Source: an uncultured Candidatus Saccharibacteria bacterium
GTDB lineage: Bacteria > Patescibacteriota > Minisyncoccia > Phycocordibacterales > UBA9973
Assembly (NCBI GenBank): GCA_964646765.1
Contig: CAZYIA010000003.1
Coordinates: forward strand, 130,815-194,814
Reading direction: 5' to 3'
DNA: 64,000 bases
Shown here piece by piece: positions 3,659-62,368 of the stretch. Position 1 is the stretch's first letter. Each line of letters begins with the position of its first letter. Under the pieces are notes generated by a model, which saw only the letters and a program-made list of their open reading frames with translations, had not been told where the DNA came from and did no database searches. The position numbers and the translations under genes are program-made.

Positions 3659-4570
3659 ATGACACATTGGGTTTTTATTGCACTCGTTCCTCCTATTATT
3701 TGGGCGGCAATCAATCATGGTGATAAGTATGCAGTTGATCGCTTCATGGTTGGGAGAAATCCTGGTGCGCTCATTATTACTACTGGCGCGTCGGGACTGG
3801 TGATGCTTCTAGTCCTTTCGCTTTTTGTCCAAGGAAGTGAAGCAACAGCATTCCAAGCAGGGATTATGATCCTCGCGGGCTTTTTACTCGCACTTTCGTA
3901 TGTGCCATACATGTATGCTCTCGCAAAGGATGAAGCTTCGAATGTTGCGCCACTTTTTCAGCTTATTACACCGCTTGTCTTTGTTTTAGCCTTCTTTGTA
4001 TTAGGAGAGACGCTTTCAGTTCTTCAAGTTTTTTCCGGCCTACTTATTATCCTGGGAGCACTTATTCTTTCAACACGAATTGAAGCTCTTACGTTTAAAC
4101 TACGAACATTCCTTCTGATGAGTCTCACGGCGCTTATGATTGCGGCGAATGTGGTTATTTTTAAATCAACAGCGATCAACAGCATCTTTTGGGATGCCGT
4201 ACGGTACGATCTTGTAGGGGTAGCTCTCGCAGGCCTCGCACTCTTTCTCTGCGTGCCGGTGTACCGTCGCGACCTTTTTAGTGCCATTCGCGAACATGGA
4301 GCACAAGTTATTACAGTAAATGCTGTTATTGAAGTAAGTAATGTTCTCGCTCGTATCGTAAATGGTTATGTGACCCTTTTTGTGCCAGCAACCTTAGTGC
4401 AATTTGTGAATGGTTTCCAGCCAGTGTTTATCGTGCTTTTTGGTATGGTGCTTACCCGCTGGTTCCCATCATGGGGGAGTGAAGCTCTTGATCGAAAATC
4501 ACTCTTGCGTAAGGGTTTGGCAGTATGTGTAATGGTTCTTGGTCTTATTCTTCTTTCGATCTATAACTAA
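3659..4570 (+). CDS. DMT/EamA-like multi-pass membrane transporter
   Basis: 303 aa and about 10 hydrophobic helices. An N-terminal WAAINHGDKYAVDRF motif has EamA-like topology. This is a family-level guess. Confidence 0.45.
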   Translation: MTHWVFIALVPPIIWAAINHGDKYAVDRFMVGRNPGALIITTGASGLVMLLVLSLFVQGSEATAFQAGIMILAGFLLALSYVPYMYALAKDEASNVAPLFQLITPLVFVLAFFVLGETLSVLQVFSGLLIILGALILSTRIEALTFKLRTFLLMSLTALMIAANVVIFKSTAINSIFWDAVRYDLVGVALAGLALFLCVPVYRRDLFSAIREHGAQVITVNAVIEVSNVLARIVNGYVTLFVPATLVQFVNGFQPVFIVLFGMVLTRWFPSWGSEALDRKSLLRKGLAVCVMVLGLILLSIYN

Positions 4571-4573
4571 TCT

Positions 4574-5143
4574 ATGCGAGAAATTGAAGTAAAAGCTAGG
4601 GTGCCGGATCGAGAAAAACTTCTCGCTGCCTTTGCTGGTAAAGGGATCGAACTTTCCTCATCTCAAAAAGAAGTTGATACGCTGTTTTCTGTTACACCGG
4701 ATTTTTATGAAGAGTATGGAAAAGGAATACCACCAGCTGTTGGCCTTACTCGTGTGCGAGAAAAATCAAACGGTGAGGTAACGGTGACATATAAAAAAAG
4801 AGGCGGGGGAGTACATCTCGACAAAGTTGAATATGAAGTCGTCGTTTCTGACGCAACGACGGCAAAGCAACTCTTCGAAGCTATTGGCCTTATCCCAATT
4901 CTAACTATGGACAAAACCCGACAGAAGGCCCATCTTGGAGAGTACGAGGTCTGCTTAGATGAGGTTGCTGGACTTGGAACTTTTATTGAAATTGAAAAGT
5001 TATTACCTGAAGAAGACAAAACTTCAGGAGAAGAAATACAAAAAGAGCTTTGGGGTACGTTACTCTCTTTAGGTATTTCACGTGATGATGAAGTACATGT
5101 TGGTTACGATATTTTAAAATATGAGGCTGACCTCAAAAAGTAG
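4574..5143 (+). CDS. CYTH-domain protein (class IV adenylate cyclase / triphosphate tunnel metalloenzyme family)
   Basis: The N-terminal MREIEVKARV matches the CYTH ExExK motif. It is an acidic protein of ~189 aa, a size typical of CyaB-like proteins. Confidence 0.55.
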   Translation: MREIEVKARVPDREKLLAAFAGKGIELSSSQKEVDTLFSVTPDFYEEYGKGIPPAVGLTRVREKSNGEVTVTYKKRGGGVHLDKVEYEVVVSDATTAKQLFEAIGLIPILTMDKTRQKAHLGEYEVCLDEVAGLGTFIEIEKLLPEEDKTSGEEIQKELWGTLLSLGISRDDEVHVGYDILKYEADLKK

Positions 5144-14500: not shown

Positions 14501-15321
14501 TGTCACCAAAACTCTTCGACGTTCATACGCACGTAAATTTCAATCTTTTCAAAGATGATTGGAAAGAAGTGTGTGATCGTGCTGTTTCTGAAGGTGTATG
14601 GCTCGCAAACGTTGGCACACAGCAGGATACATCAAAACGTGCAATTGAGATGGCCGAAGAATATGAGAAAGGAGTGTATGCCATTATTGGTCTTCATCCA
14701 ATCCATACCTCAAAGTCGTATCATGATTTGAAAGAGTTAGGTGAAGGTGGTGCTGAGTTTACGTCTCGCGGTGAGTCATTTCGTGTTGAAGCATATCGCT
14801 CGCTTGCAGAGCATCCAAAAACAATTGCTATAGGGGAGTGTGGTCTCGACTACTATCGTTTAGATACTGAAACGGCCAAAGTACAGCGTGAAGCATTTGT
14901 TGCTCAAATTGAATTAGCCAACAGTGTTAACAAACCACTTATGCTTCACGTGCGCGAAGCGTATCCTGATGCTCTCGCAATTGTAAAAGAATATGCAAAA
15001 GTACAGGCCAATGTACATTTCTTTGCTGGTAATTGGGAAATCGCCAAAACATTTTTAGATATTGGTTGTACGCTCTCATTTACTGGTGTTGTAACGTTTA
15101 CTCACGATTACGATGAAGTAATTAAAAATGCACCCCTTGATCGCATTCTCACCGAAACCGACGCACCGTATATTACGCCAACGCCTTTCCGCGGCCGCCG
15201 CAATGAACCTTCGTATGTGAAATACGGAGCTGAACGCATGGCGCAAATTCGTGGAATGTCGTATGAAGATTTTGCCAAAGCAACAACAGAAAACGCCCTT
15301 ACGTTTTTTAAACTTTTGTAA
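14500..15321 (+). CDS. tatD: TatD family metal-dependent hydrolase/DNase
   Basis: N-terminal FDVHTHVNF, GECGLDY, and the LMLHVREA and ETDAPY motifs. The start overlaps the metG stop (TAATG). Confidence 0.8.
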   Translation: MSPKLFDVHTHVNFNLFKDDWKEVCDRAVSEGVWLANVGTQQDTSKRAIEMAEEYEKGVYAIIGLHPIHTSKSYHDLKELGEGGAEFTSRGESFRVEAYRSLAEHPKTIAIGECGLDYYRLDTETAKVQREAFVAQIELANSVNKPLMLHVREAYPDALAIVKEYAKVQANVHFFAGNWEIAKTFLDIGCTLSFTGVVTFTHDYDEVIKNAPLDRILTETDAPYITPTPFRGRRNEPSYVKYGAERMAQIRGMSYEDFAKATTENALTFFKLL

Positions 15322-15322
15322 C

Positions 15323-16093
15323 ATGAACACTTATCAAAAAGAACTCGACGTTGCTAAGAATATTGCTAAACAAGCAGGGAACATAATGCTTGAATACTTC
15401 GACGGTGAGCAAGGTTTGGAACTGAAGGAAGATAATTCATTTGTTACCATCGCTGACAAGAAAGTTAACCAACTGGTAATCAGTGAACTTTCAAAACACT
15501 TTGACGATGTATTGATTGGTGAAGAAGAAAGTACTGGCGGATATGGCATGGGTCGCCGCTGGCTTTGTGATCCTATCGATGGCACAAAAGCTTTTGTATG
15601 GGGTACACCTACCGCGATGTTTTCGCTTGCATTAGTAGTTGACGGAGTACCTACCATTGGTGTTGCGTACGATCCATTTCTCGACAAACTTTATGAAGCA
15701 GTTCTCGGAAATGGAGCATACTGTAATGGAAAACAGATACATGTTTCTACAAAAAATCTTACTGAAGGAGTCCTTGGTGTAATAAGTAGCGTAAAAGGAA
15801 TACTAACGAGGCCAGGGTATTTAGTTTCATTGGCGGAAAAAGGGGCAACATTCGCAACATTTAGCGGCGCAGTGTATAAAGGATGTTTAATTGCGCGCGG
15901 AAAAATTACTGGTTTTCCCAATCCAAGGATAAGTCCTCATGATATCGCAGCGGTGCATGTAATTATCGAAGAGGCAGGAGGGAAGGTTACGGATGTTCTT
16001 GGTAATAAGCTCGACTACAGTAAACCATTCAAAGGCGCTATTCTCTCAAATGGAGTAGTTCACGAAGAGCTGATAGAAGCTTTAAAAAACTAA
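15323..16093 (+). CDS. Inositol monophosphatase family protein (SuhB-like)
   Basis: WLCDPIDGTKAFV (DPIDGT) and a later HDIAAVHVIIEEAGG (WD-x-AAG-like) motif are present. Confidence 0.7.
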   Translation: MNTYQKELDVAKNIAKQAGNIMLEYFDGEQGLELKEDNSFVTIADKKVNQLVISELSKHFDDVLIGEEESTGGYGMGRRWLCDPIDGTKAFVWGTPTAMFSLALVVDGVPTIGVAYDPFLDKLYEAVLGNGAYCNGKQIHVSTKNLTEGVLGVISSVKGILTRPGYLVSLAEKGATFATFSGAVYKGCLIARGKITGFPNPRISPHDIAAVHVIIEEAGGKVTDVLGNKLDYSKPFKGAILSNGVVHEELIEALKN

Positions 16094-32070: not shown

Positions 32071-32880
32071 ATGCAAGAGAAACAATTATGGTTTAGAGCA
32101 AAACGATATGGTTGGGGCTGGTATCCAGTTACTTGGCAAGGTTGGATTATTCTTCTACTTTTTGTCGCAGTGTACGGTTTAAACGTAGTTTTTTTCACTG
32201 GCAGAGGTACTGAACCAACAAATAGTGAACTTTTTTGGTTTCTTGTTCGCACGGTAGTTTTGGTTGGCACACTTATCTATGTATGTTATCGACATGGTGA
32301 GACACCAGGCTGGCGATGGGGAGAAGAAAAAGAAGAACAGATTGCTATCTTCACCAGCGAAGGAAAACCCACTGGCAGTATTGCCAATTTCTCCGAGGTG
32401 CATGCCAAAGGTCTTTGGCATGAGACGGTGCACATTTGGATTGTGACGCCAGAGAAAAAGATTTTGATGCAGAAGCGTTCCGGAAAGAAAAATGCTGGTG
32501 GAGGGGAATGGGATAATCATGGCGGCCATATTGCGGCAGGTGAAACACCAGAAGCAGCGATTATTCGCGAAGTGAAGGAAGAGATTGGACTTACACTAAC
32601 AAAGAATATTCTCAAGCGAACAATTCGTTATAGTAAAAGTCACTCATATAAAAATAATACCTTTATTGAAAACGAGCATATCAATGTTTTTATTGCCGAG
32701 GTTTCAGTAGCTCTTTCTGATCTCAAACTTGATCGGAATGAGGTTTCTGACGCCCAACTCTTTACACTTCCCGAGCTTTCCGTAGGTAAAGCATCTGATG
32801 GTTCCATAATTGGTATGTCTGCAAAAGAATATCAGGTACTACTTGCGTATCTCTCTAGCGAAAAAAATGGCAACGCGTAA
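32071..32880 (+). CDS. Nudix hydrolase with an N-terminal membrane domain
   Basis: Two or three N-terminal TM helices, then a Nudix box GGHIAAGETPEAAIIREVKEEIGL. Confidence 0.65.
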   Translation: MQEKQLWFRAKRYGWGWYPVTWQGWIILLLFVAVYGLNVVFFTGRGTEPTNSELFWFLVRTVVLVGTLIYVCYRHGETPGWRWGEEKEEQIAIFTSEGKPTGSIANFSEVHAKGLWHETVHIWIVTPEKKILMQKRSGKKNAGGGEWDNHGGHIAAGETPEAAIIREVKEEIGLTLTKNILKRTIRYSKSHSYKNNTFIENEHINVFIAEVSVALSDLKLDRNEVSDAQLFTLPELSVGKASDGSIIGMSAKEYQVLLAYLSSEKNGNA

Positions 32881-35206: not shown

Positions 35207-35695
35207 ATGGATTGTTTTTTGTGTAATGCTGTAGCAAGTCCCGGCGAGCTTTTTGCGGAGAACCAGTTTTTTGCTGCTCGCTTTGATGCCCATCCGGTAA
35301 CTCCTGGTCACGTGCTTATTTTCCCGAAAGATCACACCCTTTCGTTTTTCGATATTCCAGCCGAAGCTTATCCATACCTACACGATAGTATTACTAAAGC
35401 AAAACAGACAATTGAGGCAGTCGGCTTTGAAGAACTCTACCTTCGCATGAAAGAAGCATATCCAGAACGAGAAAAAGCCACTCAGTATATTGAATCTATG
35501 CTCGCTTCACCATTTTTAAAACGAAAACCAGAAGGCTACACTATTGGAGTAAATAATGGGGAAGTTGCCGGCCAAACGGTGCCCCATGTCCACATGCATC
35601 TTATCCCACGATATCGCGGAGATGTTATTGATCCTCGTGGAGGTGTGCGTACCGTAATCCCAGCTCTCGGTAATTATCGTATCTATGGAAATTAA
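35207..35695 (+). CDS. HIT family (histidine triad) nucleotide hydrolase/transferase
   Basis: N-terminal C-x-x-C (MDCFLCN) and the histidine triad PHVHMHLIP. Confidence 0.75.
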   Translation: MDCFLCNAVASPGELFAENQFFAARFDAHPVTPGHVLIFPKDHTLSFFDIPAEAYPYLHDSITKAKQTIEAVGFEELYLRMKEAYPEREKATQYIESMLASPFLKRKPEGYTIGVNNGEVAGQTVPHVHMHLIPRYRGDVIDPRGGVRTVIPALGNYRIYGN

Positions 35696-43642: not shown

Positions 43643-45565
43643 ATGGTTTTTCAACGCCGCTATAGGCTACTGATAACTTCTCTCGTTACACTTTTCTTTT
43701 ACGGTGCTGGCGTTTCCTATGCTATGACGCTCGTAGCGCCTCATACCGTACTTGATCCAGTTGGTCTTCCTGGAGCGTATTCGGTGCAAACTGGTCCAGC
43801 CGGTTCTTCTTCCTCTATTCAATATAACGATGCCGGTGCTTTTGGTGCTGATCCAAACTTTACTCGCAACCCTCTCGGTACGGATTTTAATGTCATCTCA
43901 GATATTGGCACAGGAGTATCTGCCCGTATTCAGCAAAGTAGTTCGGTATTAGGTATAGGAATAAAAGGAACAGCGTTTTTGTATTCCGATAATAATTATG
44001 TATCTAGTTTTACGGGTATAGTAGCCGGGGACTTTACTGCTGTAGGTGGGGAAGCTAACGCAATGCTTATTGGTTACCAAGCGTTTAGTGGAGGAACTTC
44101 AGCTACTATTACACCAACGTATGATGCTGGTTCTGACACGTCTACTATTGGAGTTTCCACGAAAAATAGCACAGGAAAGGAGGCCCGTGTTGGAGTACAG
44201 GCAAACCCAACAGGAGGTAATATTAGTTTTAATTTTGGTGGTTCAAATAATTACTACTTTCCAGATACAGAACCTACTATAGGTACAGTTTTAGGATACA
44301 CAGGCTCTCATCAACTCGGTTGGGTTTCTGCTGGTGGTGGCGGTGGAGTAACAATAGGTAATCCAATTACCGGAGGCACTGGCGACCGTATTTTGTTTGA
44401 AGATGCTTCAAACAATCTTCGAGAAAGTAATAATTTAATATTTGTTGATACAACTGGTTATTTTGATGTTTCTTTTGCGGGTAGTACTCATTTCTTAAGT
44501 AATCCTTCAAGTGGGCAGTACTATATGGGTACTAACGGCGGAAATAAAACACTCATTCAGATACTTGATGGTGGTACCAATGAAATTTCAAATAGTGTAA
44601 ACGGTCAATTCTACGTTCAACAAACAAATGGCCCAAGACTTATTGATGGAAATACTAACACGTTTAATCTCTACCTTGGTGATGTAGGGCATAATGCAAA
44701 TACTACCTCTATCGAGCTCTTAGACTCTGCTGCACAGATACATCTTGTTGCTCACTCAACTGGAATTGGTTCTAGCGGTTTAATTGAAATTGGTGACAGA
44801 AACAACGATGGTAATAGCACGAAGTTTAGTTTGAATGATTTTGCTAGACAAGTATTTGTTCAAACAAATGGAGATTTTGGAGTACAGAATTTTTCAGGAC
44901 AACGTGCTATCGATGTTGATTTCTCATCGGGATTTTATTTTGCAGCAGGTGATGCTAATGCTGTTGCAAATGGTACGAAACTTACCGTCAACGACAGCAC
45001 TTCGCTTGTTACTATTAATGCAGCAAATGGGTTGGTAGTTAATGATAATAATTCCCACACATGTACTGTTGATCCGAACGGCGGCACCTGTACTTCTGAT
45101 GAACGTCTCAAAACTAATATTACTGATCTTCCTTCGACTACTCTCAATACTCTTGCTGGCCTTCGCACCGTTACCTACACCTGGAACAGTGGTGCTGATA
45201 TGACAACAAAGCATATTGGTTTTTTGGCACAAAATGTTCGCGATGCGTATCCAGAACTCGTTAGTACTGACCCAAATGGATACCTAGGTGTAAATTATCC
45301 AGGGTTCACCCCACTTCTTGTTGAAGCATTGAAAGAAGTGAAGTTGCAGCTTGATTCGCTTGATACTCTTATAACTACCAATACGTCATTTACTGCTCAC
45401 ATGCGAGAATGGTTGGGAGATACGGCAAATGGAATTGCTCGTATTTTTGCAGACAAAGTTGAGACGCATGAACTGTGTGTTGATGGTCAGTGTCTAAATG
45501 AGCAGGATGTGCGTGACCTTCTACAGTTGCGCAACCAAGTATTGGGCACCCTGGTACAGTCCTAA
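43643..45565 (+). CDS. Secreted fibre-like protein with a C-terminal intramolecular-chaperone (Peptidase_S74 / endosialidase chaperone-like) domain
   Basis: An N-terminal hydrophobic anchor, then a conserved VAPHTVLDPVGLPGAYSV motif, then a Gly/Asn/Thr-rich beta region. The C-terminus SDERLKTNITDL...HIGFLAQNVRDAYPELV...GYLGVNYPGFTPLLVEALKE matches the tail-fibre chaperone consensus. Confidence 0.6.
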   Translation: MVFQRRYRLLITSLVTLFFYGAGVSYAMTLVAPHTVLDPVGLPGAYSVQTGPAGSSSSIQYNDAGAFGADPNFTRNPLGTDFNVISDIGTGVSARIQQSSSVLGIGIKGTAFLYSDNNYVSSFTGIVAGDFTAVGGEANAMLIGYQAFSGGTSATITPTYDAGSDTSTIGVSTKNSTGKEARVGVQANPTGGNISFNFGGSNNYYFPDTEPTIGTVLGYTGSHQLGWVSAGGGGGVTIGNPITGGTGDRILFEDASNNLRESNNLIFVDTTGYFDVSFAGSTHFLSNPSSGQYYMGTNGGNKTLIQILDGGTNEISNSVNGQFYVQQTNGPRLIDGNTNTFNLYLGDVGHNANTTSIELLDSAAQIHLVAHSTGIGSSGLIEIGDRNNDGNSTKFSLNDFARQVFVQTNGDFGVQNFSGQRAIDVDFSSGFYFAAGDANAVANGTKLTVNDSTSLVTINAANGLVVNDNNSHTCTVDPNGGTCTSDERLKTNITDLPSTTLNTLAGLRTVTYTWNSGADMTTKHIGFLAQNVRDAYPELVSTDPNGYLGVNYPGFTPLLVEALKEVKLQLDSLDTLITTNTSFTAHMREWLGDTANGIARIFADKVETHELCVDGQCLNEQDVRDLLQLRNQVLGTLVQS

Positions 45566-45686: not shown

Positions 45687-48041
45687 ATGTTTAAAAAGTA
45701 CCGAGTAGTTACCGGAATCGCTATTTTTCTTTCCCTCTATACGGGGGCGTTATGCGCTTTTGCAACTACCTATGTTGCTCCTGGTACCGTGCTTGATCCC
45801 GCTGGTCTTCCTGGTGGTTACACCGTTGGACCTTTTTTGTCATATGGTGGTGCTGTTACCACAGGGCACGATAACGAGGTTCTCTATATGGATGGCAGTG
45901 GTAACTTAGTTAGTGATTCAAATTTTGTTCGGGACGCTTCAACAGGTGAGACGCTCATAAGCCAAGATCAATCAGGCATAACGGCTGGAGTTGGAATGTC
46001 TCAGACACTTTTTGGAGGCTTACCTGCTGTTAGTTTTATTCGTCAGGATAGTAATGGTTCAGCAGTTGCTGGTTTATTTGATACAACTTCACTTGGAGGT
46101 AGCGCGTATACTTTTTATGTACATACTCAGGACTCAATAGTAAACTCGCAGGCTCAATTGTTTACCCTTCCTCACTCAATTGGTGGAGGAGTGGCAAATG
46201 CTACTGGTGAGCAAGGATCTTTTAATATACAAGATGATAGTGCCGCGTTACGTGTAGATAATCAGAATGGCGGTAATAATGATGTTGTTCAACTCGGTGT
46301 GGATTTAGGTACAGGGTTGGGTACTCAGTATGCATATCTTGAATTCAGAGATGTTGCTAAACGCTACCTCGCAAGATTTGGTTCGAATGGTCTTACCCTC
46401 GATTTTGATAACGGGGCAAGTACCCCAGGATTATTTTATTCTTTTCCAGTTACTGATGGGACTAGCGGTCAAGTACTTGCAACTGATGGCTCTGGTCAAA
46501 TTTCATGGGTATCAACTTCTGCAACGATCCAAGGGTATACTTCCGCAATCCCTGCTCTGCTCAATACGGCATTAGGTGTAAATACAGCAGATGTCGGAGT
46601 TGGGTATTCAAATACTTGGATAGGCGCAGGTGCTGGTAGTTCTATGACGGTAAATAACAGCGCGCCGTATTCTCGAAATACATTTGTTGGCGCATTTGCC
46701 GGAAGTAACATAACTACCGGAACTAGTAACGTACTTGTTGGATATCAGTCTGCTTTTTCTACAACTAATGCAGACTATAACGTTCAGATTGGTACTGATA
46801 CTGAACTTTTTGATGGTGCACAAAATACTGTTTCTATTGGTCAGAGTGTGAAAGCTGGTGGTATTACCAATATTCTTATTGGGTATGCTGCAGGAAGTGG
46901 GGGAATTGATAGTTCAAGTGCTCGCAATATTGGTATGGGGTATTCAGCTTTGTCTGCGCTTACCACTGGAAGTGATAACGTTGCTTTAGGTACTGATGCA
47001 GGTGTTGGTGTAACCACAGGTAGCGACAATATTCTCATTGGTAAAAATGCCACCGCAACGGGAGACGGTTCAATTGTTATCGGAAACAATCTCTCAGCTC
47101 CTACAGATAAATTAGTCCTCATTGGTGGTTTATTTGAAGGAGGATATGATCCTGCTGGTTTAAATGGAGTGTATGCGTTCCTTGGAGATCGCTATAATGC
47201 AGGACATGGCACCGTGCTATCGGTTGACGATAAAAACCAAAAGATTAGATTTTACTTTGGCGCTAATAGCTACACATTTCCTTCAGCGGACGGCACTATG
47301 AACTATCTTCTTGCAACTGATGGTTCGGGAAATCTCTTTTGGCAGGATCCAACACTTGTTCCATCAGATCGTACGCTCAAAACAGATGTTGAATCACTTC
47401 AGTATGGTCTCTCAACTATCATGAATCTTAACCCAGTTTCGTATACACTGACTGCAAATAATAAACGCCAAATTGGTTTTATTGCACAGGATGTTGAACC
47501 AATCGTTCCCGAACTTGTCGGTGAGGTTGCTGATGGTAAGAAAGGTTTGGCATACGGACAGCTTACTGCGGTTATTGTGAAGGCAATTCAAGAACTTAAT
47601 ATGAAGGTAGAAAATATTCAGCCGCTTTCAAGTGAACCATCCTCACTTATTGATCAGTTTACTTCCGCTATTCTTCACATTCGTGGTTTAGTTGTTGGGT
47701 CATCAGAGTATCGAACGGGTATTACTCTTTACGATGAAGTAACTGGAGAACCATACTGTCTTTCTGTCGCGGATGGGCAGCCAAAAAGTGTTGCCGGAGA
47801 ATGTGGATCAGGAGTTTCTTCTTCAGGATCTACTTCTAATTCGACAAATAGTGATACTAGCATAGATGATCAAGGCGTATCAGGAAGTACACCTGCTGAT
47901 GACGCTACGACCTCTTCAGATACTTCTTTAGACAGTACAACTACTGTTGTAGATGCTTCAAATAGTTCCTCAAATGGGTCAACAAGTGAGGATAGTACCA
48001 CCCAAGGAGAAACAGCAGATAGTTCTACGGGAACTGAATAA
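45687..48041 (+). CDS. Paralogous secreted fibre-like protein with a Peptidase_S74-like chaperone domain and a Ser/Thr-rich C-terminal tail
   Basis: The N-terminus (TYVAPGTVLDPAGLPGGYTV) is conserved with the upstream gene. SDRTLKTDVESL...QIGFIAQDVEPIVPELV...GLAYGQLTAVIVKAIQELN fits the chaperone consensus, followed by an S/T-rich low-complexity tail. Confidence 0.6.
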   Translation: MFKKYRVVTGIAIFLSLYTGALCAFATTYVAPGTVLDPAGLPGGYTVGPFLSYGGAVTTGHDNEVLYMDGSGNLVSDSNFVRDASTGETLISQDQSGITAGVGMSQTLFGGLPAVSFIRQDSNGSAVAGLFDTTSLGGSAYTFYVHTQDSIVNSQAQLFTLPHSIGGGVANATGEQGSFNIQDDSAALRVDNQNGGNNDVVQLGVDLGTGLGTQYAYLEFRDVAKRYLARFGSNGLTLDFDNGASTPGLFYSFPVTDGTSGQVLATDGSGQISWVSTSATIQGYTSAIPALLNTALGVNTADVGVGYSNTWIGAGAGSSMTVNNSAPYSRNTFVGAFAGSNITTGTSNVLVGYQSAFSTTNADYNVQIGTDTELFDGAQNTVSIGQSVKAGGITNILIGYAAGSGGIDSSSARNIGMGYSALSALTTGSDNVALGTDAGVGVTTGSDNILIGKNATATGDGSIVIGNNLSAPTDKLVLIGGLFEGGYDPAGLNGVYAFLGDRYNAGHGTVLSVDDKNQKIRFYFGANSYTFPSADGTMNYLLATDGSGNLFWQDPTLVPSDRTLKTDVESLQYGLSTIMNLNPVSYTLTANNKRQIGFIAQDVEPIVPELVGEVADGKKGLAYGQLTAVIVKAIQELNMKVENIQPLSSEPSSLIDQFTSAILHIRGLVVGSSEYRTGITLYDEVTGEPYCLSVADGQPKSVAGECGSGVSSSGSTSNSTNSDTSIDDQGVSGSTPADDATTSSDTSLDSTTTVVDASNSSSNGSTSEDSTTQGETADSSTGTE

Positions 48042-50261: not shown

Positions 50262-50843
50262 ATGGAAATTAAAAAGCCAAAAGATCTTCAGCCAATACCT
50301 GAGAACGCACAATGTGTTTTCAAAGGAAAGATCTTTGATGTCTATCAATGGGAGCAAGAACTCTACGATGGTACTAAAGCTACGTTTGAGAAGTTAAAAC
50401 GGCCTGATACCGTTGTTGTCTGGCCGGTGCTTCCAAACGGCAATATTCTTTTAACTAAGCAATCGCAGCCAAGCCGAGAAGATTTTATAGATGTACCAAG
50501 TGGCCGAGTAGATGAAGGTGAAGATGTTTTAGAAGCTGCTAAACGTGAACTCTTGGAAGAAACTGGGTATGCATCGGAGAATATGGTTTTCTGGCGCGCA
50601 TTTCAGCCTACGGCAAAAATAGAATGGTTTGTATATCTTTTCATTGCCAAAGACTGCAAAAAAGTAAAAGAGCAAAACCCAGATGTCGGAGAAAAGATAG
50701 AAACCTTCGAAGCTTCTTTCGATGAAATTTTAGAAATTTCACAACAACCTAACTTCAGGGGAACAGAATCCTCTCGAGATTTTCTTGAAGCAAAATATAA
50801 CCCAAAGAAATATCAGGAATTTAAGGATTTGTTTTTGAAATAA
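50262..50843 (+). CDS. Nudix hydrolase
   Basis: Nudix box GRVDEGEDVLEAAKRELLEETGY. Confidence 0.7.
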   Translation: MEIKKPKDLQPIPENAQCVFKGKIFDVYQWEQELYDGTKATFEKLKRPDTVVVWPVLPNGNILLTKQSQPSREDFIDVPSGRVDEGEDVLEAAKRELLEETGYASENMVFWRAFQPTAKIEWFVYLFIAKDCKKVKEQNPDVGEKIETFEASFDEILEISQQPNFRGTESSRDFLEAKYNPKKYQEFKDLFLK

Positions 50844-56981: not shown

Positions 56982-57129
56982 AGAAAGGTTGTGGCAAAGC
57001 GTTAAAATTTTGGGAAAACGTCATATTTTTATCTGTTGATCGTCCTATATAGTGGGAAGCAATTCCCCTAAGTTATACACACAAAATATTTCCGTTTATT
57101 TCCGTTCACTGTGTGGTAAAATAATTACA

Positions 57130-57717
57130 GTGTTAATCAAACAAACTCCGAAGTTTTTGATTGGTGTTGATGAAGTTGGGCGCGGTCCTATTGCCGGCCC
57201 GGTAGCAGTGTGCGCTCTCCTCTGGAAGGATCGAGAATTTGATCCGCCTCCACATATAAAAGATTCAAAACAGCTCTCGCCGCAAAAACGCGAAGAATGG
57301 TTTGAGCAGGTTCGTATCTGGGAAAAAGAGGGAAGAGTGTCATTTGCCGTTTCTTTTATCTGTGCCGAAACAATTGATAAAGTTGGTATTAGTCCTTCAA
57401 CACATCGAGCAGTAAGCAACGCAATTCGCCGGCTCGAAGTTGATCCTGCTCAAGTCCATATTCTTTTGGACGGTAGTCTCTATGCCCCTGAAGAGTACTA
57501 TCACCAAGAAACAATAATTCGCGGTGATGAACGCGAACCAGTTATTGCTCTTGCCTCAATTGTGGCTAAGGTGCACCGTGACCGCTTGATGGAAAAAATG
57601 AGTGATCAATATCCCGGGTACGGTTTCGAAGTGCATAAAGGATATGGTACGAGTGAACATTATCGAGCACTGAAAAAACTCGGTCCGTCGCCACTTCACC
57701 GGCTCTCATTCATCTAA
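57130..57717 (+). CDS. rnhB: Ribonuclease HII
   Basis: LIGVDEVGRGPIAGPVAV is RNase HII-typical. The start was moved to GTG 57130, 7 nt after an extended -10 TGgTAAAAT (57114-57122); the track ORF starts at GTG 57052. Confidence 0.75.
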   Translation: MLIKQTPKFLIGVDEVGRGPIAGPVAVCALLWKDREFDPPPHIKDSKQLSPQKREEWFEQVRIWEKEGRVSFAVSFICAETIDKVGISPSTHRAVSNAIRRLEVDPAQVHILLDGSLYAPEEYYHQETIIRGDEREPVIALASIVAKVHRDRLMEKMSDQYPGYGFEVHKGYGTSEHYRALKKLGPSPLHRLSFI

Positions 57718-58106
57718 GTGTGAATTTGTAATTGACGAAAGTTCCATGCGTCAGCTAGTATGGAAAAATATTGAACCGCTTGAAAATTTTTTAATTTTTT
57801 CACTTAAACCAAAAAGTTGCACTATGGATGGAGCATCCAACACCAACGGCAAGTCAGGTACAGGAGGTACTGACCTACATACCTGTCTAAACACAGGTAT
57901 CCCCCTGACTATTGAAAAGGGTATAGAAACCCACACGCAAAAAAGTAAACCTTCATTAAAGAAGGATGAACATTTGCGAGTTACATCAGCGACTAATTAT
58001 CAGCAGGAGCTGATTGGTCGGTAACCATTCTTTATTTTAATTTTGACTCGTACCCCCGTCGCGATATATTCCTTCGGGGGCACGTTTATATTTGAATAGT
58101 CCCGAA

Positions 58107-58135
58107 CTTGTTTTTTTAGAAAAATTTGGTATAGT
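58107..58135 (+). promoter_or_regulatory. Promoter CTTGTT-N17-TGgTATAGT ending 8 nt before the rpmF ATG
   Basis: The hexamers and the extended -10 TG can be read directly. This implies a leaderless rpmF transcript. Confidence 0.4.
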
Positions 58136-58143
58136 CCTCACAT

Positions 58144-58350
58144 ATGGTAGTACGCATGCGACACACGCGAGCACACACCGGCAATCGCCGCTCGCACCAC
58201 AAAGTTAAGAATCAAGCAGTCACCACCGACTCTAAGACTGGTGCTGTTCACCTTCGCCACCGTGTTGACCTCACCACAGGCACCTATCGCGGTAAAAAAG
58301 TCATCGACGTTATGAAGAAAGTCGAAAAAAGACAAGCGAAGAAAAAATAA
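58144..58350 (+). CDS. rpmF: 50S ribosomal protein L32
   Basis: RRSHH...KTGAVHLRHRV...GTYRGKKVI matches L32. Confidence 0.8.
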   Translation: MVVRMRHTRAHTGNRRSHHKVKNQAVTTDSKTGAVHLRHRVDLTTGTYRGKKVIDVMKKVEKRQAKKK

Positions 58351-58428
58351 AAGGTATTAAGTCCTTTCGTTCTTTCCGTTCTTTATTAAAACTAAAACCG
58401 AGCAAGCTAGAATCTATCACTAGTTCGT

Positions 58429-59334
58429 ATGGCCAATAGACACCTTTCACGTTCAATCATCCTTCAAACCCTCTTTGAGTGGGATTTTAAGGGACAACCT
58501 CTCGAAGGTGTTTTTGACATGCTCGAGCGGAACGCTGAAGAATTTGCACCAGGCCTCGACGACTATGAATTTATGAAGGCGATGACTGAGAGCGTGGTTA
58601 AAAACCGCCTCATCATCGACCAGGTTATCGAAAAAGCCGCTCCAGAATGGCCGCTCGAAAAGATTAATGCAGTTGACCGTAACATCCTTCGCATTGGACT
58701 TGCCGAGCTCCTTTTTGGTGACCACGCTGCTGTACCACCAAAAGTTTCTATTAACGAGGCTATTGAATTGGCGAAAACCTTCGGCGGGGATAGTTCCTCA
58801 CGCTTTATTAATGGCGTGCTTGGTGCTGTGTATAAAGAAATTGGTGAGCCAGGCAAAGAGCAAAAATCAAAGCGCCAAATGAAAGACGAACCGGTTGATG
58901 TTTCAACACTTCCGGTTGAACAGAAAGCAGGTGCTGTGGTGTACGCAGAGCATGATGGGGAAGTGTACCTTGCGTTGGTGCACGATGTGTTTGGCTACTG
59001 GACCCTTTCAAAAGGTGGCGTAGAAGAAAGTGATAAATCATCTGAAGATGCCGCTAAGCGTGAAGTAAAAGAAGAAATTGGTATCGATGTAGCCGTTAAA
59101 GAAAAACTCGGTGAAGATGAGTATATTGCTTCGCATCCAGAGAAAGGAAAAATTCGCAAACATGTTACTTTCTTTCTTGCAGAATCAAAATATCAGCCAC
59201 TCAAACTTGAATCTTCAGGTGGTTTAGATGAAGCCGCTTGGTTTACGCTTTCTAATGTGACAAAGCTTCGCATGTATGATAGTGTGACCGCACTGATCGC
59301 GAAAGCAATCCCGATCATTACTAGCAAAAAGTAA
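58429..59334 (+). CDS. nusB: NusB (transcription antitermination factor) fused to a C-terminal Nudix hydrolase domain
   Basis: The N-terminal ~140 aa are NusB-like (ANRHLSRSIILQTLFEWDF...). The C-terminal ~150 aa carry a Nudix box (GGVEESDKSSEDAAKREVKEEIGI). Confidence 0.6.
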   Translation: MANRHLSRSIILQTLFEWDFKGQPLEGVFDMLERNAEEFAPGLDDYEFMKAMTESVVKNRLIIDQVIEKAAPEWPLEKINAVDRNILRIGLAELLFGDHAAVPPKVSINEAIELAKTFGGDSSSRFINGVLGAVYKEIGEPGKEQKSKRQMKDEPVDVSTLPVEQKAGAVVYAEHDGEVYLALVHDVFGYWTLSKGGVEESDKSSEDAAKREVKEEIGIDVAVKEKLGEDEYIASHPEKGKIRKHVTFFLAESKYQPLKLESSGGLDEAAWFTLSNVTKLRMYDSVTALIAKAIPIITSKK

Positions 59335-59396: not shown

Positions 59397-60089
59397 ATGA
59401 AAGATATCTCCGCTTTTCCCGCTTCTCTCGGCATCACCTTTAAAGATGTTGGTCTCTTGAAGCAGGCATTTACTCACCGTTCATTCATTAACGAAAATCC
59501 AGGAACAAAACTCGCACACAACGAGCGTCTTGAATTTTTGGGTGATGCAGTACTTGAACTTATCGTTACTAATCATCTGTATCGTGCATATCCTGGGGCA
59601 CCAGAAGGTGAGCTTACAGCGTTTCGCAGTGCGCTTGTGAACACCGTTACTATTTCTGATGCTGCGCTTTCACTTGGGATGAATGACTACCTCCTTCTTT
59701 CTCGCGGTGAAGCAAAAGATGTAGGTAAAGCACGTATGCACATTTTGGCAAACACCTTCGAAGCGTTTATTGGTGCACTCTATCTCGATCAAGGGTATGA
59801 CGCCGCTACGAAATTTGTCGATAGTAAACTGTTTCCAAAACTTAAAGAAATCGTTGAAAAGAAACTCTGGCGTGATCCAAAGAGCTTAGTTCAGGAAAAG
59901 GCCCAAGAAATTCTTCATGTAACACCAGCGTATAAGGTGTTAGGCGAGAGTGGCCCTGATCACGATAAGCGATTTATTGTAGGTATTTGTTTTGGTTCTG
60001 AGGTGGTCGCTGAAGGCCGCGGTAAGAGTAAACAAGAAGCCGAAACTAAGGCTGCGGAGGCTGCTCTTCACCAGAAGGGCTGGTTCTAG
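59397..60089 (+). CDS. rnc: Ribonuclease III
   Basis: The ERLEFLGDAVLELIV signature and a C-terminal dsRBD. Confidence 0.9.
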   Translation: MKDISAFPASLGITFKDVGLLKQAFTHRSFINENPGTKLAHNERLEFLGDAVLELIVTNHLYRAYPGAPEGELTAFRSALVNTVTISDAALSLGMNDYLLLSRGEAKDVGKARMHILANTFEAFIGALYLDQGYDAATKFVDSKLFPKLKEIVEKKLWRDPKSLVQEKAQEILHVTPAYKVLGESGPDHDKRFIVGICFGSEVVAEGRGKSKQEAETKAAEAALHQKGWF

Positions 60090-60106: not shown

Positions 60107-62368
60107 ATGCTCAAACAGATCGAGCTTTCCGGTTTCAAGTCGTTCGCTAAACGAACGACGCTGGACTTTGGTGTTCCGATTACGGCCATCGTTGGTCCAA
60201 ACGGTTCAGGAAAATCCAATATTGTTGAATCGATTCGTTTCGTGCTTGGTGAGCAATCAATGAAATCGCTCCGTGGTAAGGGCGGCGTTGACCTCATTTT
60301 TAAAGGTTCAAAAAATCTCTCGGCACTTTCACGTGCGTCTGTTTCAGTTGTTTTTGATAACAGCACCCGCATGTTTCAGGTTGCTCGAGCAGGAGAGGAT
60401 ACTCTCCGAGTAGATTTTGATGAAATCACTATTTCTCGTGAAGTTTTTTCTGATGGTAAAAATGTGTACCGCTTAAATGGTACGGAAGTGCGTTTAAAAG
60501 ATATTGTTGAACTGCTTGCATCTGTAAATATTGGTTCAAGTGGTCATCATATTATTTCGCAAGGTGAAGCTGACCGCTTGCTTTCCGCGAATCCAAAAGA
60601 TCGCCGCGCTATGGTGGAAGATGCACTCGGTCTCCGTGTGTATCAATTTCGTTTACGCGAAGCAGAACGCAAACTTGAACGTACCGAAGAAAATATTCGT
60701 GAGGTAAATGCACAGCGTCGTGAGGTTGCTCCACACCTTAAATTTTTGAAGGGTCAGGTAGAAAAAGTTGAAAAGACTGCTGAGCTTCGAAATGACTTAG
60801 CCCAACTGTACAAAGAGTACTTTGCGCTTGAATCCGTATATGTAGCCGAAGAGGGAAGCCGCTTAGCAGGGGTTGCAAAAGAACTTGATGAAAAACTTGC
60901 TGAGATTGATCAGAAAATTTCCGGTGCACGCGTTCTTTCGGAGGTTGATGTAGAAAGTCCACTCAAAAAGGAACGTGAAGAAGTACAAGCAAAACTTTCG
61001 GAAGCCAACGCTACCCGCGATGAACTTTCTCGGAAGCTTGGCCGTATTGAAGGAACTATTTCAGCCCTTGAAGCTCGTTTAAATGCACCTGCACCAAAAT
61101 CACCAACTGGCGCTTTGCCAGTACCGCGTGATCTCGTGAGCGCTCTTATTACCGAAGTTCGTTCACTTCAAGAATTTCTTTCTGTGCCAGAAAAACTTTC
61201 TGGTTTGGTTTCAACGTTGCTTGCGCGTGCTGAAGCTCTTGAAAAGTTAGCTAGTGGTGGAGCGCAACAAGTAGTCGAAGTAGACAAAGAAGCTCTGATA
61301 GCTGAAATCGAATCACTCCGTGCCTCGTATCGTGCGATTCAAGAAGAGATTGACGAAGTAGAAAAAACAGCTGAAACATTCCGTGAAAAATTAAATGATT
61401 TAGCTACTCACGAAAAAGAAATGGATCGCGATGCTCGCGAACGCGATCGTGCGTACTACGAAGCCAAGAGTGAGAAAACTGAGCTCGAATCACGCCGCCG
61501 CATGGTAGCACTTGAAGAAGAGACTCTTCGCGTAGCCAAAGAGCGCTTTGATGCGGATCTTCGCGAAGCTGGTGTTTTGGTTGGATTAGATGCTATTCGT
61601 TTCCAAAAAAGTGAAGCTCTATACGATAAAGCCACCCAGGATACTCGCCGACATAAAATTGAGCGTGCGAAGATAAAACTTGAAGAAGCCGGTGCAGTTT
61701 CGGGTGCTGAAGTTTTGAAAGAATACGAAACCACCAAAGAACGAGATGAATTTTTGGGTCGTGAACTTATTGACCTTGAACAGTCGGTTGCCGACTTGCG
61801 AGCGCTTATTCGAGAACTTCGCGAAACAATTGATACTAAATTTAAAGAAGGTGTTGAACTCATTAACAAAGAATTTTCAAAATTCTTCTCGCTGATGTTC
61901 GGTGGCGGCAGCGCCTTTCTTTCTATTGTTGTAGAACATAAGCGTGCATCCAAGGGGGACGATGAAGATGAAGAAGAAACTTTAGATGAGGGAGAAGGCG
62001 AACTAACCTTCGAGCGTGGTATTGAAATCAACGTTTCTATGCCGCATAAGAAAGTAAAGGATTTGCAGATGCTCTCAGGTGGTGAGCGCTCACTTACTTC
62101 AATTGCACTTCTTTTTGCAATGTCACAAGTTAACCCACCACCATTCTTAGTACTCGACGAAACCGATGCAGCGCTTGATGAAGCAAACTCACGCCGCTAT
62201 GGTGATATGCTTGAAAATCTCTCTGGCCGGTCAAAACTTATTGTGGTAACTCACAATCGCGAAACGATGTCCCGCGCCGGCGTGCTCTACGGTATCACTA
62301 TTGGTGCCGATGGGGGATCGAAGCTTCTCTCGATCAAATTTGACGAAGCAGTCAAAATTGCGAAATAA
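60107..62368 (+). CDS. smc: SMC-family chromosome segregation ATPase (short, 753 aa; hinge not evident)
   Basis: N-terminal FKSFAKRTTLDFGVPITAIVGPNGSGKSNIVESIRFVLGEQS; long coiled-coil; and a C-terminal LSGGERSLTSIALLFA...LVLDETDAALD. Confidence 0.7.
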   Translation: MLKQIELSGFKSFAKRTTLDFGVPITAIVGPNGSGKSNIVESIRFVLGEQSMKSLRGKGGVDLIFKGSKNLSALSRASVSVVFDNSTRMFQVARAGEDTLRVDFDEITISREVFSDGKNVYRLNGTEVRLKDIVELLASVNIGSSGHHIISQGEADRLLSANPKDRRAMVEDALGLRVYQFRLREAERKLERTEENIREVNAQRREVAPHLKFLKGQVEKVEKTAELRNDLAQLYKEYFALESVYVAEEGSRLAGVAKELDEKLAEIDQKISGARVLSEVDVESPLKKEREEVQAKLSEANATRDELSRKLGRIEGTISALEARLNAPAPKSPTGALPVPRDLVSALITEVRSLQEFLSVPEKLSGLVSTLLARAEALEKLASGGAQQVVEVDKEALIAEIESLRASYRAIQEEIDEVEKTAETFREKLNDLATHEKEMDRDARERDRAYYEAKSEKTELESRRRMVALEEETLRVAKERFDADLREAGVLVGLDAIRFQKSEALYDKATQDTRRHKIERAKIKLEEAGAVSGAEVLKEYETTKERDEFLGRELIDLEQSVADLRALIRELRETIDTKFKEGVELINKEFSKFFSLMFGGGSAFLSIVVEHKRASKGDDEDEEETLDEGEGELTFERGIEINVSMPHKKVKDLQMLSGGERSLTSIALLFAMSQVNPPPFLVLDETDAALDEANSRRYGDMLENLSGRSKLIVVTHNRETMSRAGVLYGITIGADGGSKLLSIKFDEAVKIAK

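Follow-up and report, generated by a model that had tools for sequence, protein, structure and literature searches.

The antitermination subunit NusB is, to our knowledge, universal and well studied, and every description so far presents it as a small protein that stands on its own. One open reading frame (ORF) in the 64,000-nt stretch of DNA analyzed here (the window) raises the question of whether NusB can carry a second domain of the Nudix family and, if so, what that domain does there. The initial annotation read this ORF as a NusB-Nudix fusion within an rpmF-nusB-rnc-smc gene string and suggested that it processes RNA 5' ends or caps co-transcriptionally.

A NusB protein continued by a Nudix domain

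The ORF translates exactly as quoted in the initial annotation, and public data hold a protein cluster 100% identical to its product (P0001). Its parts are as follows.

58429..59334, plus strand: complete NusB-linker-Nudix ORF, ATG start, 301 aa, end coordinate including the stop codon
58429..58842, plus strand: NusB domain, aa 1-138, all-helical (PF01029, TIGR01951, AF2, Foldseek)
58843..58926, plus strand: linker, aa 139-166, Lys-rich, predicted disordered (pLDDT and conservation across 80 species)
58843-58857, plus strand: invariant G-E-P-G-K motif opening the linker, aa 139-143
58927..59331, plus strand: Nudix-fold domain, aa 167-301, of the ApnA-hydrolase / aq_158 type (PF00293, AF2, PDB matches)
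59014..59085, plus strand: Nudix box, aa 196-219, G-GVEES-D-KSSEDAAK-REVKEEIGI, read from the sequence

The domain searches that had been proposed as a check matched both families. The recognizable NusB start is borne out by scores above the curated cut-offs for Pfam PF01029 (aa 7-136, E 3.8e-31, 108.7 bits against 23.1) and for the NCBIfam nusB equivalog TIGR01951 (120.4 bits against 88.35). The AF2 model of this part has helices at residues 4-20, 28-39, 46-58, 60-70, 81-96 and 104-138 (pLDDT ~90); Foldseek places it with 3r2d_B (TMt 0.87, rmsd 1.8) and 1eyv_B (TMt 0.85) and matches its fold to NusB-NusE-RNA structures. Across 80 species, 63 of the 138 NusB columns are at least 95% conserved. 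The N-terminal part of the ORF is thus the organism's real NusB, with a role in binding S10 and boxA RNA that we assume from other bacteria, and no second NusB was found within the 64,000-nt window. Rfam and tRNA scans of the window recovered nothing, and the window contains no rRNA operon, boxA or rpsJ, so the target of NusB in this lineage is likewise taken from what is known elsewhere.

The Nudix-like segment noticed in the C-terminal part also proved sound: NUDIX PF00293 matches aa 167-279 (E 3.3e-14, 53.5 bits against a Pfam cut-off of 21.1), the AF2 model forms an alpha/beta/alpha sandwich (pLDDT ~90) with the Nudix fold, and every top PDB match is a Nudix protein. Between the two domains, linker residues G139, E140, P141, G142, K143 and P162 reach 95% conservation or more in the 80 species, and pLDDT is below 50 at aa 141-155. 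AF2 predicts no fixed contact between the domains, and the whole protein has a mean pLDDT of 86 yet a pTM of 0.48. This low pTM and the disordered linker would fit two independent, tethered domains.

Genomic setting and expression signals

All neighbors in the proposed gene string were identified by Pfam, and dnaE lies upstream on the minus strand. The surrounding features are listed here.

57052..57717, strand not given: rnhB
58144..58350, plus strand: rpmF, ribosomal protein L32 (Pfam PF01783, E 1.3e-12)
58386..58413, plus strand: weak sigma-70-like promoter match TTAAAA-16-TAGAAT, 9/12 consensus, ending 15 nt before the ATG
59397..60089, plus strand: rnc, RNase III (PF14622, PF00636, dsrm)
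60107..62368, plus strand: short smc-like ATPase of 753 aa that closes the conserved string (PF02463 SMC_N, E 2.7e-63)

It is possible that the TTAAAA-16-TAGAAT element is the fusion gene's own promoter, which would leave a very short leader; a scan for promoters and terminators around the gene found no enrichment (5 found, 3.8 expected in shuffles). The remark that many genes in this genome look leaderless finds some support in the window, where 3 of 49 genes have an SD-like motif upstream and 10 of 49 have a -10-like hexamer 5-14 nt ahead of the start codon, against ~1.7 expected. An inositol-monophosphatase/SuhB-family gene is present at 15251..16093, and the genome has at least two other Nudix genes, candidates for the real RppH. 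The window also holds an IleRS with an inserted histidine-phosphatase domain.

The fusion is old and widespread

In the Paceibacteria/Parcubacteria branch of Patescibacteria, the fusion is genuine and of long standing. Among the 80 best Patescibacteria species loci, 79 carry it as a single fused ORF, and one in-frame stop was seen (L007). This answers the question of whether related orthologues are fused. Relatives turn up in at least 594 GTDB species genomes and in thousands of metagenome clusters. The best 120 clusters of the query-based search are all fused, as are the best 120 of the 6289 clusters that a profile built from distant members reached at E<=1e-10. The setting is conserved too: in related loci rpmF lies directly upstream of the fusion in 78 of 80, rnc downstream in 80 of 80, and smc is present in 72 of 80. 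That the fusion is an assembly or sequencing artefact, a frameshift merging two adjacent genes, has a negligible chance of being right, with nothing but the initial suspicion in its favor, since the ORF is continuous here and the identical architecture recurs in independent NCBI, JGI, ENA and Logan assemblies.

Separate nusB and nudix genes were considered as the ancestral state and set aside, because the stand-alone Nudix relatives that we looked up do not adjoin nusB: one is surrounded by integrase, DNA methylase and Rep_O genes (P0151), another has metabolically rich, non-Patescibacteria-like surroundings (P0193), and a third lies on a 1-kb contig (P0152). In our literature searches on NusB with Nudix, NusB in Patescibacteria and Nudix in the candidate phyla radiation, the fusion was not described. 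Public databases label the fused proteins plain 'NusB', masking the Nudix domain.

A Nudix domain of the ApnA-hydrolase type

By sequence and structure, the best PDB neighbors of the Nudix part are 3i7u, 1vc8, MutT1/Rv2985, CT771 and NUDT2. Phmmer gave E-values of 7.8e-7 for 3i7u, 4.8e-6 for 1vc8 and 1.2e-5 for 4ilq, and Foldseek ranks 1-24 are dominated by ApnA-hydrolase-like proteins (aq_158, Ndx1, CT771, NUDT2), with NrtR (3GZ8) among the top hits. The Aquifex protein aq_158 (PDB 3I7U/3I7V) aligns with a Foldseek TM of 0.85-0.90, an rmsd of 2.1-2.6 A and ~26% identity. Work from 2026 demonstrated that this "Ap4A hydrolase", or Omnivore RNA pyrophosphatase, turns 5'-PPP RNA into 5'-P and takes off Ap4, NAD, FAD and m7G caps, and that its E51A mutant is inactive (PMC13145063). 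Residue E216 of the fusion aligns with E51 of aq_158 and with E50 of Ndx1 (the E50Q mutant). ApnA hydrolases are marked by a substrate-contacting Tyr in a loop that follows the Nudix box; in the human Ap4A hydrolase this residue is Tyr87 (the rule of Dunn et al., PMC5389931). In the fusion, Y232 aligns with the Tyr of 'GEIHY' in aq_158, an equivalence made by alignment only, and it is invariant in 80 of 80 and 119 of 119 orthologues. The models for known RNA pyrophosphohydrolases stay below threshold: RppH models PRK00714.x score 16-26 bits against cut-offs of 116-139 (best 25.7 against 118, NCBIfam), and the YtkD-type TIGR02705 scores 15.2 bits against 154.4 (NCBIfam).

The segment quoted in the initial annotation, KGGVEESDKSSEDAAKREVKEEIGI, corresponds to aa 195-219. 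The C-terminal half of its box, R211-E-V-K-E-E-I-G-I219 (REVKEEIGI), fits REUxEExGU, and R211, E212, E215 and E216, which serve in metal binding and catalysis, are all present. The suspected irregular spacing was found in the upstream half only, where the arrangement G196-x5-D202-x8-R211 has Asp for Glu and x8 for x7. The extra residue at the Gx5E position is K203, which occurs in 3 of 121 close homologues (the query and two others), and the consensus box of the clade is canonical, KGGVEEGE-TAEQAAVREIKEEI(N/G)L. R211 is kept in 119, E212 in 117 and E216 in all 121 of these homologues, and R-E-x-x-E-E is intact in 103 of the 121 members of the query clade.

Judged by these residues, the query clade still looks catalytically active. 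The copy studied here is probably active as well, despite Asp202 and the one-residue insertion, and these two departures from the box may impair that activity. An RppH-like activity for this copy is a reasonable guess, because its nearest characterized relative, aq_158, deprotects RNA 5' ends and R211, E212, E215 and E216 are retained.

Catalytic residues change and some other Nudix positions do not

Other samples give a different picture. The REEE tetrad is intact in 36 of 80 aligned sequences (the query and 79 species orthologues; incomplete in 44), in 72 of 119 sequences of a second sample, and in 5 of 37 diverse fused representatives versus 23 of 28 stand-alone relatives (Fisher p 2.8e-8), all counts being taken over cluster representatives that are mutually non-independent. 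Substitutions affect 37 of the 80 species orthologues, with K, A, S, R, V or I in place of E212 and K in place of E216. A tree of 117 taxa calls for at least 20 changes of catalytic state. Hydrolysis cannot be what keeps the fusion, since the catalytic Glu is substituted in about half of the species-level orthologues and in most of the diverse fused representatives, and aq_158 is inactive once its counterpart of E216 is mutated.

Other residues hold firm. H185, D186, W191, T192, K195, Y232, W271 and Y283 are present in 119 of 119 sequences of the second sample, and the same eight are conserved at 95% or more in the 37 orthologues without E212 or E216; about 20 Nudix positions are invariant even where catalysis has been lost. 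Pairwise Nudix identity is 53% in the 'dead' lineages versus 60% in canonical ones, with NusB divergence equal at 70%, and the Nudix part diverges only slightly faster than NusB. We read the invariant H185, K195, Y232, K244, W271 and Y283 as candidate substrate contacts, an assignment based on alignment and the published ApnA-hydrolase rules; W191, G189 and G265 could simply stabilize the fold. The conserved function of the Nudix domain is probably binding, not cutting.

Possible roles of the fused Nudix domain

The explanation that we favor, at a little under an even chance, is that the NusB-borne module takes hold, within the antitermination complex, of a nucleoside polyphosphate or of the 5' end of an RNA, with hydrolysis probably retained in the present copy and absent from many sister lineages. 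It starts from the architecture, conservation, synteny, fold, nearest relatives and residue pattern described above. NusB, taken as the boxA-RNA- and S10-binding subunit of the ribosomal-RNA antitermination complex, is permanently joined to a small Nudix domain by a flexible, Lys-rich linker of ~28 residues, and the conserved job of that domain would most likely be to hold a nucleoside-polyphosphate group beside the channel through which the RNA exits. The likeliest ligand would be the end, 5'-triphosphate or non-canonical cap, of the nascent boxA transcript that NusB already binds. In this clade the Nudix domain would probably also cut the bound end to a 5'-monophosphate, so that the leader freed by the neighboring RNase III would be readied for 5'-P-dependent decay or processing. 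In about half of the sister species, where the catalytic Glu is gone and the putative ligand contacts are kept, it would bind without cutting. Both the choice of an RNA 5' end as ligand and the connection to rRNA leader processing are inferred. Counting against this explanation are the hydrolysis of free Ap4A-Ap6A by enzymes of the aq_158 type, the departures of the query from the Nudix box, and the other Nudix genes of the genome, which could be the real RppH.

Alternatively, the fusion may exist for the sake of hydrolysis, as an active RppH-like decapping enzyme or pyrophosphohydrolase acting on nascent 5' ends at the transcription complex. This is close to what the initial annotation proposed, and we consider it unlikely but worth serious attention. 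The broad deprotection of RNA 5' ends by aq_158 and the R-E-x-x-E-E motif of the query clade argue for it, as do the invariant neighbor rnc and a window with few SD motifs and many -10-like boxes just before the ATG. As an account of the present copy, the proposal gains from the aq_158 relationship and the retained REEE residues. As a general explanation it is not supported, given the loss of the catalytic Glu in about half of the orthologues and the scores of the RppH models, which fall far under threshold: E212 and E216 are replaced and the tetrad is scarce among diverse fused proteins, yet the domain is still conserved, and the equivalent of E216 is essential in both aq_158 and Ndx1.

An enzyme fold can also be recruited for its shape, as SuhB is as a scaffold in the E. 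coli rrn complex. By analogy, the Nudix fold could be a purely structural or protein-interaction scaffold of the antitermination complex with no nucleotide ligand, a view that we regard as rather improbable. Labile catalytic residues would be expected of a scaffold, the invariant GEPGK of the linker suggests contact with a partner, and non-enzymatic Nudix domains are a recognized class (PMC5389931). The invariant residues, however, align with the adenine-stacking Tyr of ApnA hydrolases and with the phosphate-side Lys of W-x-x-x-K-G, which would not be expected of a mere docking surface, and the SuhB-family gene in the window leaves no obvious vacancy. A replacement of SuhB by the Nudix domain was down-weighted when this inositol-monophosphatase-family gene was found.

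That the domain senses or hydrolyzes dinucleoside polyphosphates in their free form, or related alarmones (Ap4A, Ap5A and possibly (p)ppGpp), and so ties rRNA antitermination to stress or nutrient state, seems more doubtful still. Enzymes of the aq_158 type also hydrolyze free Ap4A-Ap6A. The closest solved relatives are all annotated as ApnA hydrolases (aq_158, Ndx1 on Ap6A, CT771, NUDT2, Rv2985), the signature Tyr is conserved, and the binding-only state of many lineages would suit a sensor. Against this, known systems give no link between NusB activity and such ligands, and the AF2 model, with its low pTM and disordered linker, shows no fixed inter-domain contact through which a signal could pass.

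It is very improbable that the two domains are functionally uncoupled, with a housekeeping, nucleotide-sanitizing Nudix attached merely for co-expression in a streamlined genome and now decaying. Other odd fusions do occur in streamlined Patescibacteria, such as IleRS with its histidine-phosphatase domain, and catalytic residues are being lost; but one ORF is kept in 79 of 80 species and in thousands of clusters, invariant positions persist without catalysis at a divergence barely above that of NusB, and decay predicts repeated truncation or loss where a single in-frame stop was seen.

Significance and comparison with known systems

A whole class of ultra-small bacteria has NusB fused to a domain whose family is now known to strip triphosphates and caps from RNA 5' ends. 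We know of 5'-end chemistry coupled to the elongating polymerase so far from eukaryotic capping and decapping, and the fusion offers a concrete, testable case in bacteria. Active and dead versions among close orthologues provide a natural experiment that parts binding from hydrolysis. There is also a lesson for annotation, as the label 'NusB' alone hides a second domain. It is tempting to extend the preferred reading, in which NusB carries a grip for polyphosphates or 5' ends, to a 5'-end 'reader/eraser' in the Paceibacteria rRNA antitermination complex. Such a module would capture the 5'-triphosphate or NCIN-cap end while NusB-S10 holds boxA and would pin the leader to RNA polymerase as a closed loop, making 5'-P in catalytic lineages and giving cap-binding-like protection or positioning in dead-box lineages. 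This elaboration is speculative and on the whole unlikely; if true, it would give bacteria their first known RNA 5'-end-recognition module carried by a transcription factor.

Stand-alone NusB proteins (Aquifex 2JR0/3R2C, E. coli 3D3B, M. tuberculosis 1EYV) share with aa 1-138 of the fusion the seven-helix fold, a basic N-terminal segment and the F-I/V-N-G-V-L motif. Known NusB proteins of ~130-160 aa end after the last helix, whereas the fusion continues through the GEPGK linker into a 135-aa Nudix domain. RsmB/Sun, the 16S rRNA m5C967 methyltransferase, is a precedent for a NusB-fold RNA-binding domain placed N-terminal to a catalytic domain that acts on rRNA. Its partner, however, is a SAM-dependent methyltransferase, which is missing here, where the C-terminal half carries a Nudix domain; RsmB models match aa 38-150 weakly (43.9 bits against a cut-off of 319), and the RsmB N-domain is a diverged paralogue where the fusion is the NusB orthologue itself.

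On the Nudix side, aq_158 and the fusion have in common the W-x-x-x-K-G start of the box, the REVxEE helix, a Tyr 16 residues past EE, a K-x-V-x-Y/F-x-L strand and a C-terminal Y. Unlike the domain tethered to NusB, aq_158 stands free as an enzyme of 134 aa, and its box is canonical; the present copy has an Asp and an insertion at Gx5E, and many orthologues are without the catalytic Glu. RppH and YtkD are Nudix enzymes that turn 5'-PPP or Np4-capped RNA into 5'-P, the activity that we propose for intact fusions, but they are free proteins, and the fusion falls outside their families by sequence. We know of no fusion of RppH or YtkD to transcription factors. In the non-catalytic Nudix domains of NrtR regulators, DBC1 and TRPM2 NUDT9H, and in SuhB of the rrn antitermination complex, an enzyme fold that has lost catalysis persists as a ligand sensor or scaffold. 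None is joined to NusB, and in the fusion described here, catalytic and non-catalytic states occur among close orthologues.

Results

Domain composition and gene order

The 301-aa ORF at 58429..59334 (+) was confirmed exactly as the initial annotation gave it, with an ATG start, as were the NusB and Nudix parts assigned to it. Pfam PF01029 matches aa 7-136 (E 3.8e-31) and PF00293 matches aa 167-279 (E 3.3e-14), both far over the curated cut-offs. The NCBIfam nusB equivalog TIGR01951 gives 120.4 bits (cut-off 88.35), and the PDB sequences most like the N-terminal half are NusB of Aquifex, Thermotoga, Mycobacterium and E. coli (E 9e-19 to 1e-10), with lambda-N and rrn antitermination complexes among the matches. 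These matches place the N-terminal part in the NusB family; no second NusB is encoded within the 64-kb window. For the C-terminal half the PDB matches are small Nudix enzymes, the Aquifex 'Ap4A hydrolase' 3I7U first among them.

The proposed rpmF-nusB-rnc-smc string also holds. The order is rnhB, rpmF (L32), the fusion, rnc (RNase III) and then a short gene of smc type; dnaE lies upstream on the other strand. The rnhB-rpmF gap (57718..58143) is about 430 bp.

Features of the gene string
57746..58024, 92-aa ORF in the rnhB-rpmF gap, without a Pfam match
58043..58070, promoter-like site TTGACT-16-TATATT just upstream of rpmF
60107..62368 (+), 'smc' of the conserved string, 753 aa, SMC_N matched across both ends

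The window smc gave no hinge-domain match at E<=0.001; by its domain matches the product is a much shortened SMC-like ATPase, and related loci keep it within this size range.

An AlphaFold2 model built on 57 homologues (mean pLDDT 86, pTM 0.48) is confident for the NusB helices (aa 4-138) and for a Nudix alpha/beta/alpha sandwich (aa 163-299), and falls below a pLDDT of 50 at residues 141-155. This combination of confident domains, disordered linker and low pTM indicates that the two domains are independent of each other and flexibly joined. Foldseek against the PDB matched the N-terminal half to NusB 3R2D and 1EYV, and the Nudix domain to Aquifex aq_158 (3I7U; target TM 0.85-0.90, rmsd 2.1-2.6 A). 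Other Nudix matches were the T. thermophilus Ap6A hydrolase Ndx1, mycobacterial MutT1/Rv2985, Chlamydia CT771, the C. elegans and human Ap4A hydrolases, and the non-catalytic Nudix domain of NrtR.

Extent and conservation of the fusion

The fusion is widespread. In a search of 5.8 billion protein clusters, the 120 best listed matches (65-100% identity, 293-321 aa) carried both Pfam domains in every case; the named members among them are 'Candidatus Pacebacteria' proteins annotated as NusB only. A profile of distant fused members recovered 6289 clusters at E<=1e-10, and the top 120 of these are all two-domain proteins from Paceibacterota, Nomurabacteria and the 'Patescibacteria group'. With one genome scanned for each GTDB species, at least 594 loci were confirmed, the best 80 of which are Patescibacteria MAGs (Nomurabacteria, Paceibacterota, Kaiserbacteria, Lloydbacteria, Parcubacteria group, Minisyncoccia). 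Among these best 80, rpmF lies directly before the fusion in 78, rnc directly after it in all 80, and smc next in 72. The initial annotation had asked whether orthologues in related genomes are fused, and both domains share one unbroken ORF in 79 of the 80 species loci. A frameshift or assembly artefact is excluded by the continuous ORF here and by the same architecture across the lineage.

The sole exception is the orthologue at 4001..4888 of locus L007 (CAYUGY010000018.1). One in-frame stop, in the codon that corresponds to E137, falls exactly where its NusB domain gives way to the linker (...AVYK*LGEPGKEQ...); it may reflect a sequencing error, a recent split or read-through.

Across 80 species, G139-E-P-G-K143 and P162 of the linker are at least 95% conserved. 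The G-E-P-G-K motif (58843..58857) opens a linker that is otherwise variable and disordered, and is kept in most of the distant fused members; we know of no counterpart.

The Nudix box and its nearest characterised relatives

The segment first taken as the Nudix box spans aa 195-219, and its REVKEEIGI is canonical. The irregular spacing noted at the time is real (G196-x5-D202-x8-R211 against canonical G-x5-E-x7-R). Just 2 of the 120 homologues closest to the query share its extra residue, K203, and the clade consensus is canonical: KGGVEEGE-TAEQAAVREIKEEI(N/G)L. Asp202 and the one-residue insertion may weaken catalysis of this copy.

Residue-level alignments show features shared with the aq_158/ApnA-hydrolase type: the W-x-x-x-K-G start and REVxEE helix of the box, a Tyr 16 residues past the EE pair, a C-terminal Tyr, and a K-x-V-x-(Y/F)-(Y/F)-L strand. 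The C-terminal part is a Nudix superfamily member resembling that subgroup. Query E212 and E216 align with aq_158 E47 and E51, E216 also with the position of the Ndx1 E50Q crystallographic mutant, and Y232 with the adenine-stacking Tyr of ApnA hydrolases, a conserved residue of the post-box loop that marks these enzymes (Tyr87 in human; PMC5389931). Earlier known only as an Ap4A-Ap6A hydrolase, aq_158 converts 5'-triphosphate and 5'-diphosphate RNA to 5'-monophosphate and also strips m7G, Ap4, NAD, FAD and sugar caps; the E51A substitution abolishes activity (2026 paper, PMC13145063). Because this nearest relative acts on RNA 5' ends, the earlier suggestion of an RppH-like or decapping role has a real, if indirect, basis by analogy; by sequence, membership of the RppH and YtkD families is rejected (15-26 bits against NCBIfam cut-offs of 116-154).

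Loss of catalytic residues and retention of the fold

The catalytic tetrad REEE (R211, E212, E215 and E216) is kept unevenly.

Proteins with intact REEE
Query and 120 closest homologues: 103/121
Species-level set, query and 79 orthologues at 55-72% identity: 36/80
Second sample of clusters: 72/119
Full-length fused representatives, 50%-identity clustering: 5/37
Stand-alone relatives of about 140-160 aa, same search as the fused representatives: 23/28

Within the close clade, R211 is conserved in 119/121, E212 in 117/121 and E216 in 121/121. Elsewhere in the species-level set the box reads RKEE, REKE, REEK, KKEE, RSEK, KAKE and others, and in the diverse fused representatives RE is replaced by RV, RK, RI, RA, SV or AA among others, and EE by KE, DE, SE, TE or EK among others. 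Stand-alone and fused proteins differ in intactness with Fisher p = 2.8e-8, or 5.5e-11 without suspected fragments: the fused-family signature HDxFGxWTLSKG marks four of the five exceptions among stand-alone proteins as probable pieces of fused genes. On a neighbour-joining tree of 117 fused proteins, parsimony requires at least 20 canonical/non-canonical switches, so that the loss is scattered and a single ancient event is ruled out.

One stand-alone relative, at 4001..4453 of locus L081 (19,960-bp Logan SRR22388351 contig; 150 aa, 42% identity, canonical box), has integrase, DNA methylase and Phage_rep_O-like genes around it and so is probably carried by a mobile element or phage.

Eight residues (H185, D186, W191, T192, K195, Y232, W271 and Y283) are present in 119/119 of the second sample, and at least 95% conserved in the 37 species orthologues without E212 or E216. 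At equal NusB divergence (70% identity), Nudix pairwise identity is 60% among canonical and 53% among lost-glutamate orthologues; constraint is slightly relaxed in the latter, and purifying selection is clearly still acting. Our reading is that post-fusion selection has mainly favoured a role that would not need the metal-binding glutamates. Ligand binding is the most economical candidate, since some of the retained residues align with ApnA-hydrolase substrate contacts.

A purely catalytic role, with the tetrad largely kept in the close clade and often lost outside it, seems unlikely. We give somewhat less credence to a ligand-free scaffold, with the fold kept throughout and the putative substrate-contact positions kept with it. 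An alarmone sensor, with putative ApnA-type contacts retained beside NusB, is less probable again. A functionally uncoupled fusion is the least probable of the four, with one ORF in 79 of the 80 species loci and residues that stay conserved in orthologues without the catalytic glutamates.

Other genes of the window and translation starts

Other genes of the window
149..3655 (+), IleRS with an inserted domain (TIGR00392, 838 bits; cut-off 621)
4574..5143 (+), CYTH (triphosphate tunnel) protein
15251..16093 (+), inositol-monophosphatase/SuhB-family protein (PF00459, 164 bits; under all NCBIfam equivalog cut-offs)
32071..32880 (+), Nudix protein of 269 aa, 116-aa N-terminus without assignment
35207..35695 (+), HIT-family protein
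43643..45565 and 45687..48041 (+), two large tandem proteins, sole Pfam match Peptidase_S74
50262..50843 (+), Nudix protein of 193 aa

Both other Nudix proteins fall below every NCBIfam equivalog cut-off and show weak similarity to RppH, YtkD, NudE, MutT and IPP isomerase; either of these (the genome has at least two) could supply the cell's general RNA pyrophosphohydrolase, or RppH-type, activity. The HIT and CYTH proteins are further nucleotide-polyphosphate-handling enzymes in the same 64 kb. The SuhB-family gene bears on the fusion, as SuhB itself belongs to the rRNA antitermination complex of E. coli. The IleRS insert (about aa 507-674) belongs to the histidine-phosphatase superfamily (PF00300, E 7.6e-28), another unusual enzyme-in-housekeeping-protein fusion in this genome. 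Peptidase_S74 is an endosialidase/tail-fibre intramolecular chaperone, and the tandem proteins, which stand between pheT and gyrB, may be phage-derived or surface-fibre proteins.

Among 49 confident window genes, 3 have GGAG, GAGG or AGGA 6-16 nt upstream. A TATAAT-like hexamer with 5 or 6 of its 6 positions matched ends 5-14 nt ahead of the start in 10 of the genes, where its frequency across the window predicts about 1.7. The fusion gene has a weak TTAAAA-16-TAGAAT match ending 15 nt ahead of its ATG. The earlier remark on leaderless genes is thus sound in part: short or absent leaders are plausibly frequent in this genome, but they have no direct bearing on an enzyme tethered to NusB, since the transcripts on which NusB acts are those with boxA.

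Discussion

Proposed role

NusB-S10 binds boxA RNA on its exit from RNA polymerase, as in the E. coli and Aquifex structures. Tethered by 28 disordered residues, the Nudix domain would be free to range over several tens of angstroms round the boxA-binding site, and the polyphosphate-bearing group nearest that site would be the nascent transcript's own 5' end; we infer RNA as the ligand. In this genome's clade, with the tetrad under evident constraint, we predict hydrolysis to 5'-P, and in dead-box lineages binding only. RNase III cuts pre-rRNA leaders, and the expected hydrolysis would fit the invariant rnc adjacency. No rRNA operon or boxA was found within the 64-kb window.

Comparison with known systems

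Full-text literature searches found no description or discussion of a NusB-Nudix fusion; the architecture shows in precomputed Pfam annotations, and the protein names say only 'NusB'. If the fusion does read 5' ends, its interest rises. The closest architectural precedent is RsmB, which joins a NusB-like domain, in its case a diverged paralogue, to a different enzyme, an rRNA methyltransferase. Precedent also exists for enzyme folds kept without catalysis: NrtR, DBC1, the TRPM2 Nudix domain, and SuhB in the rrn complex.
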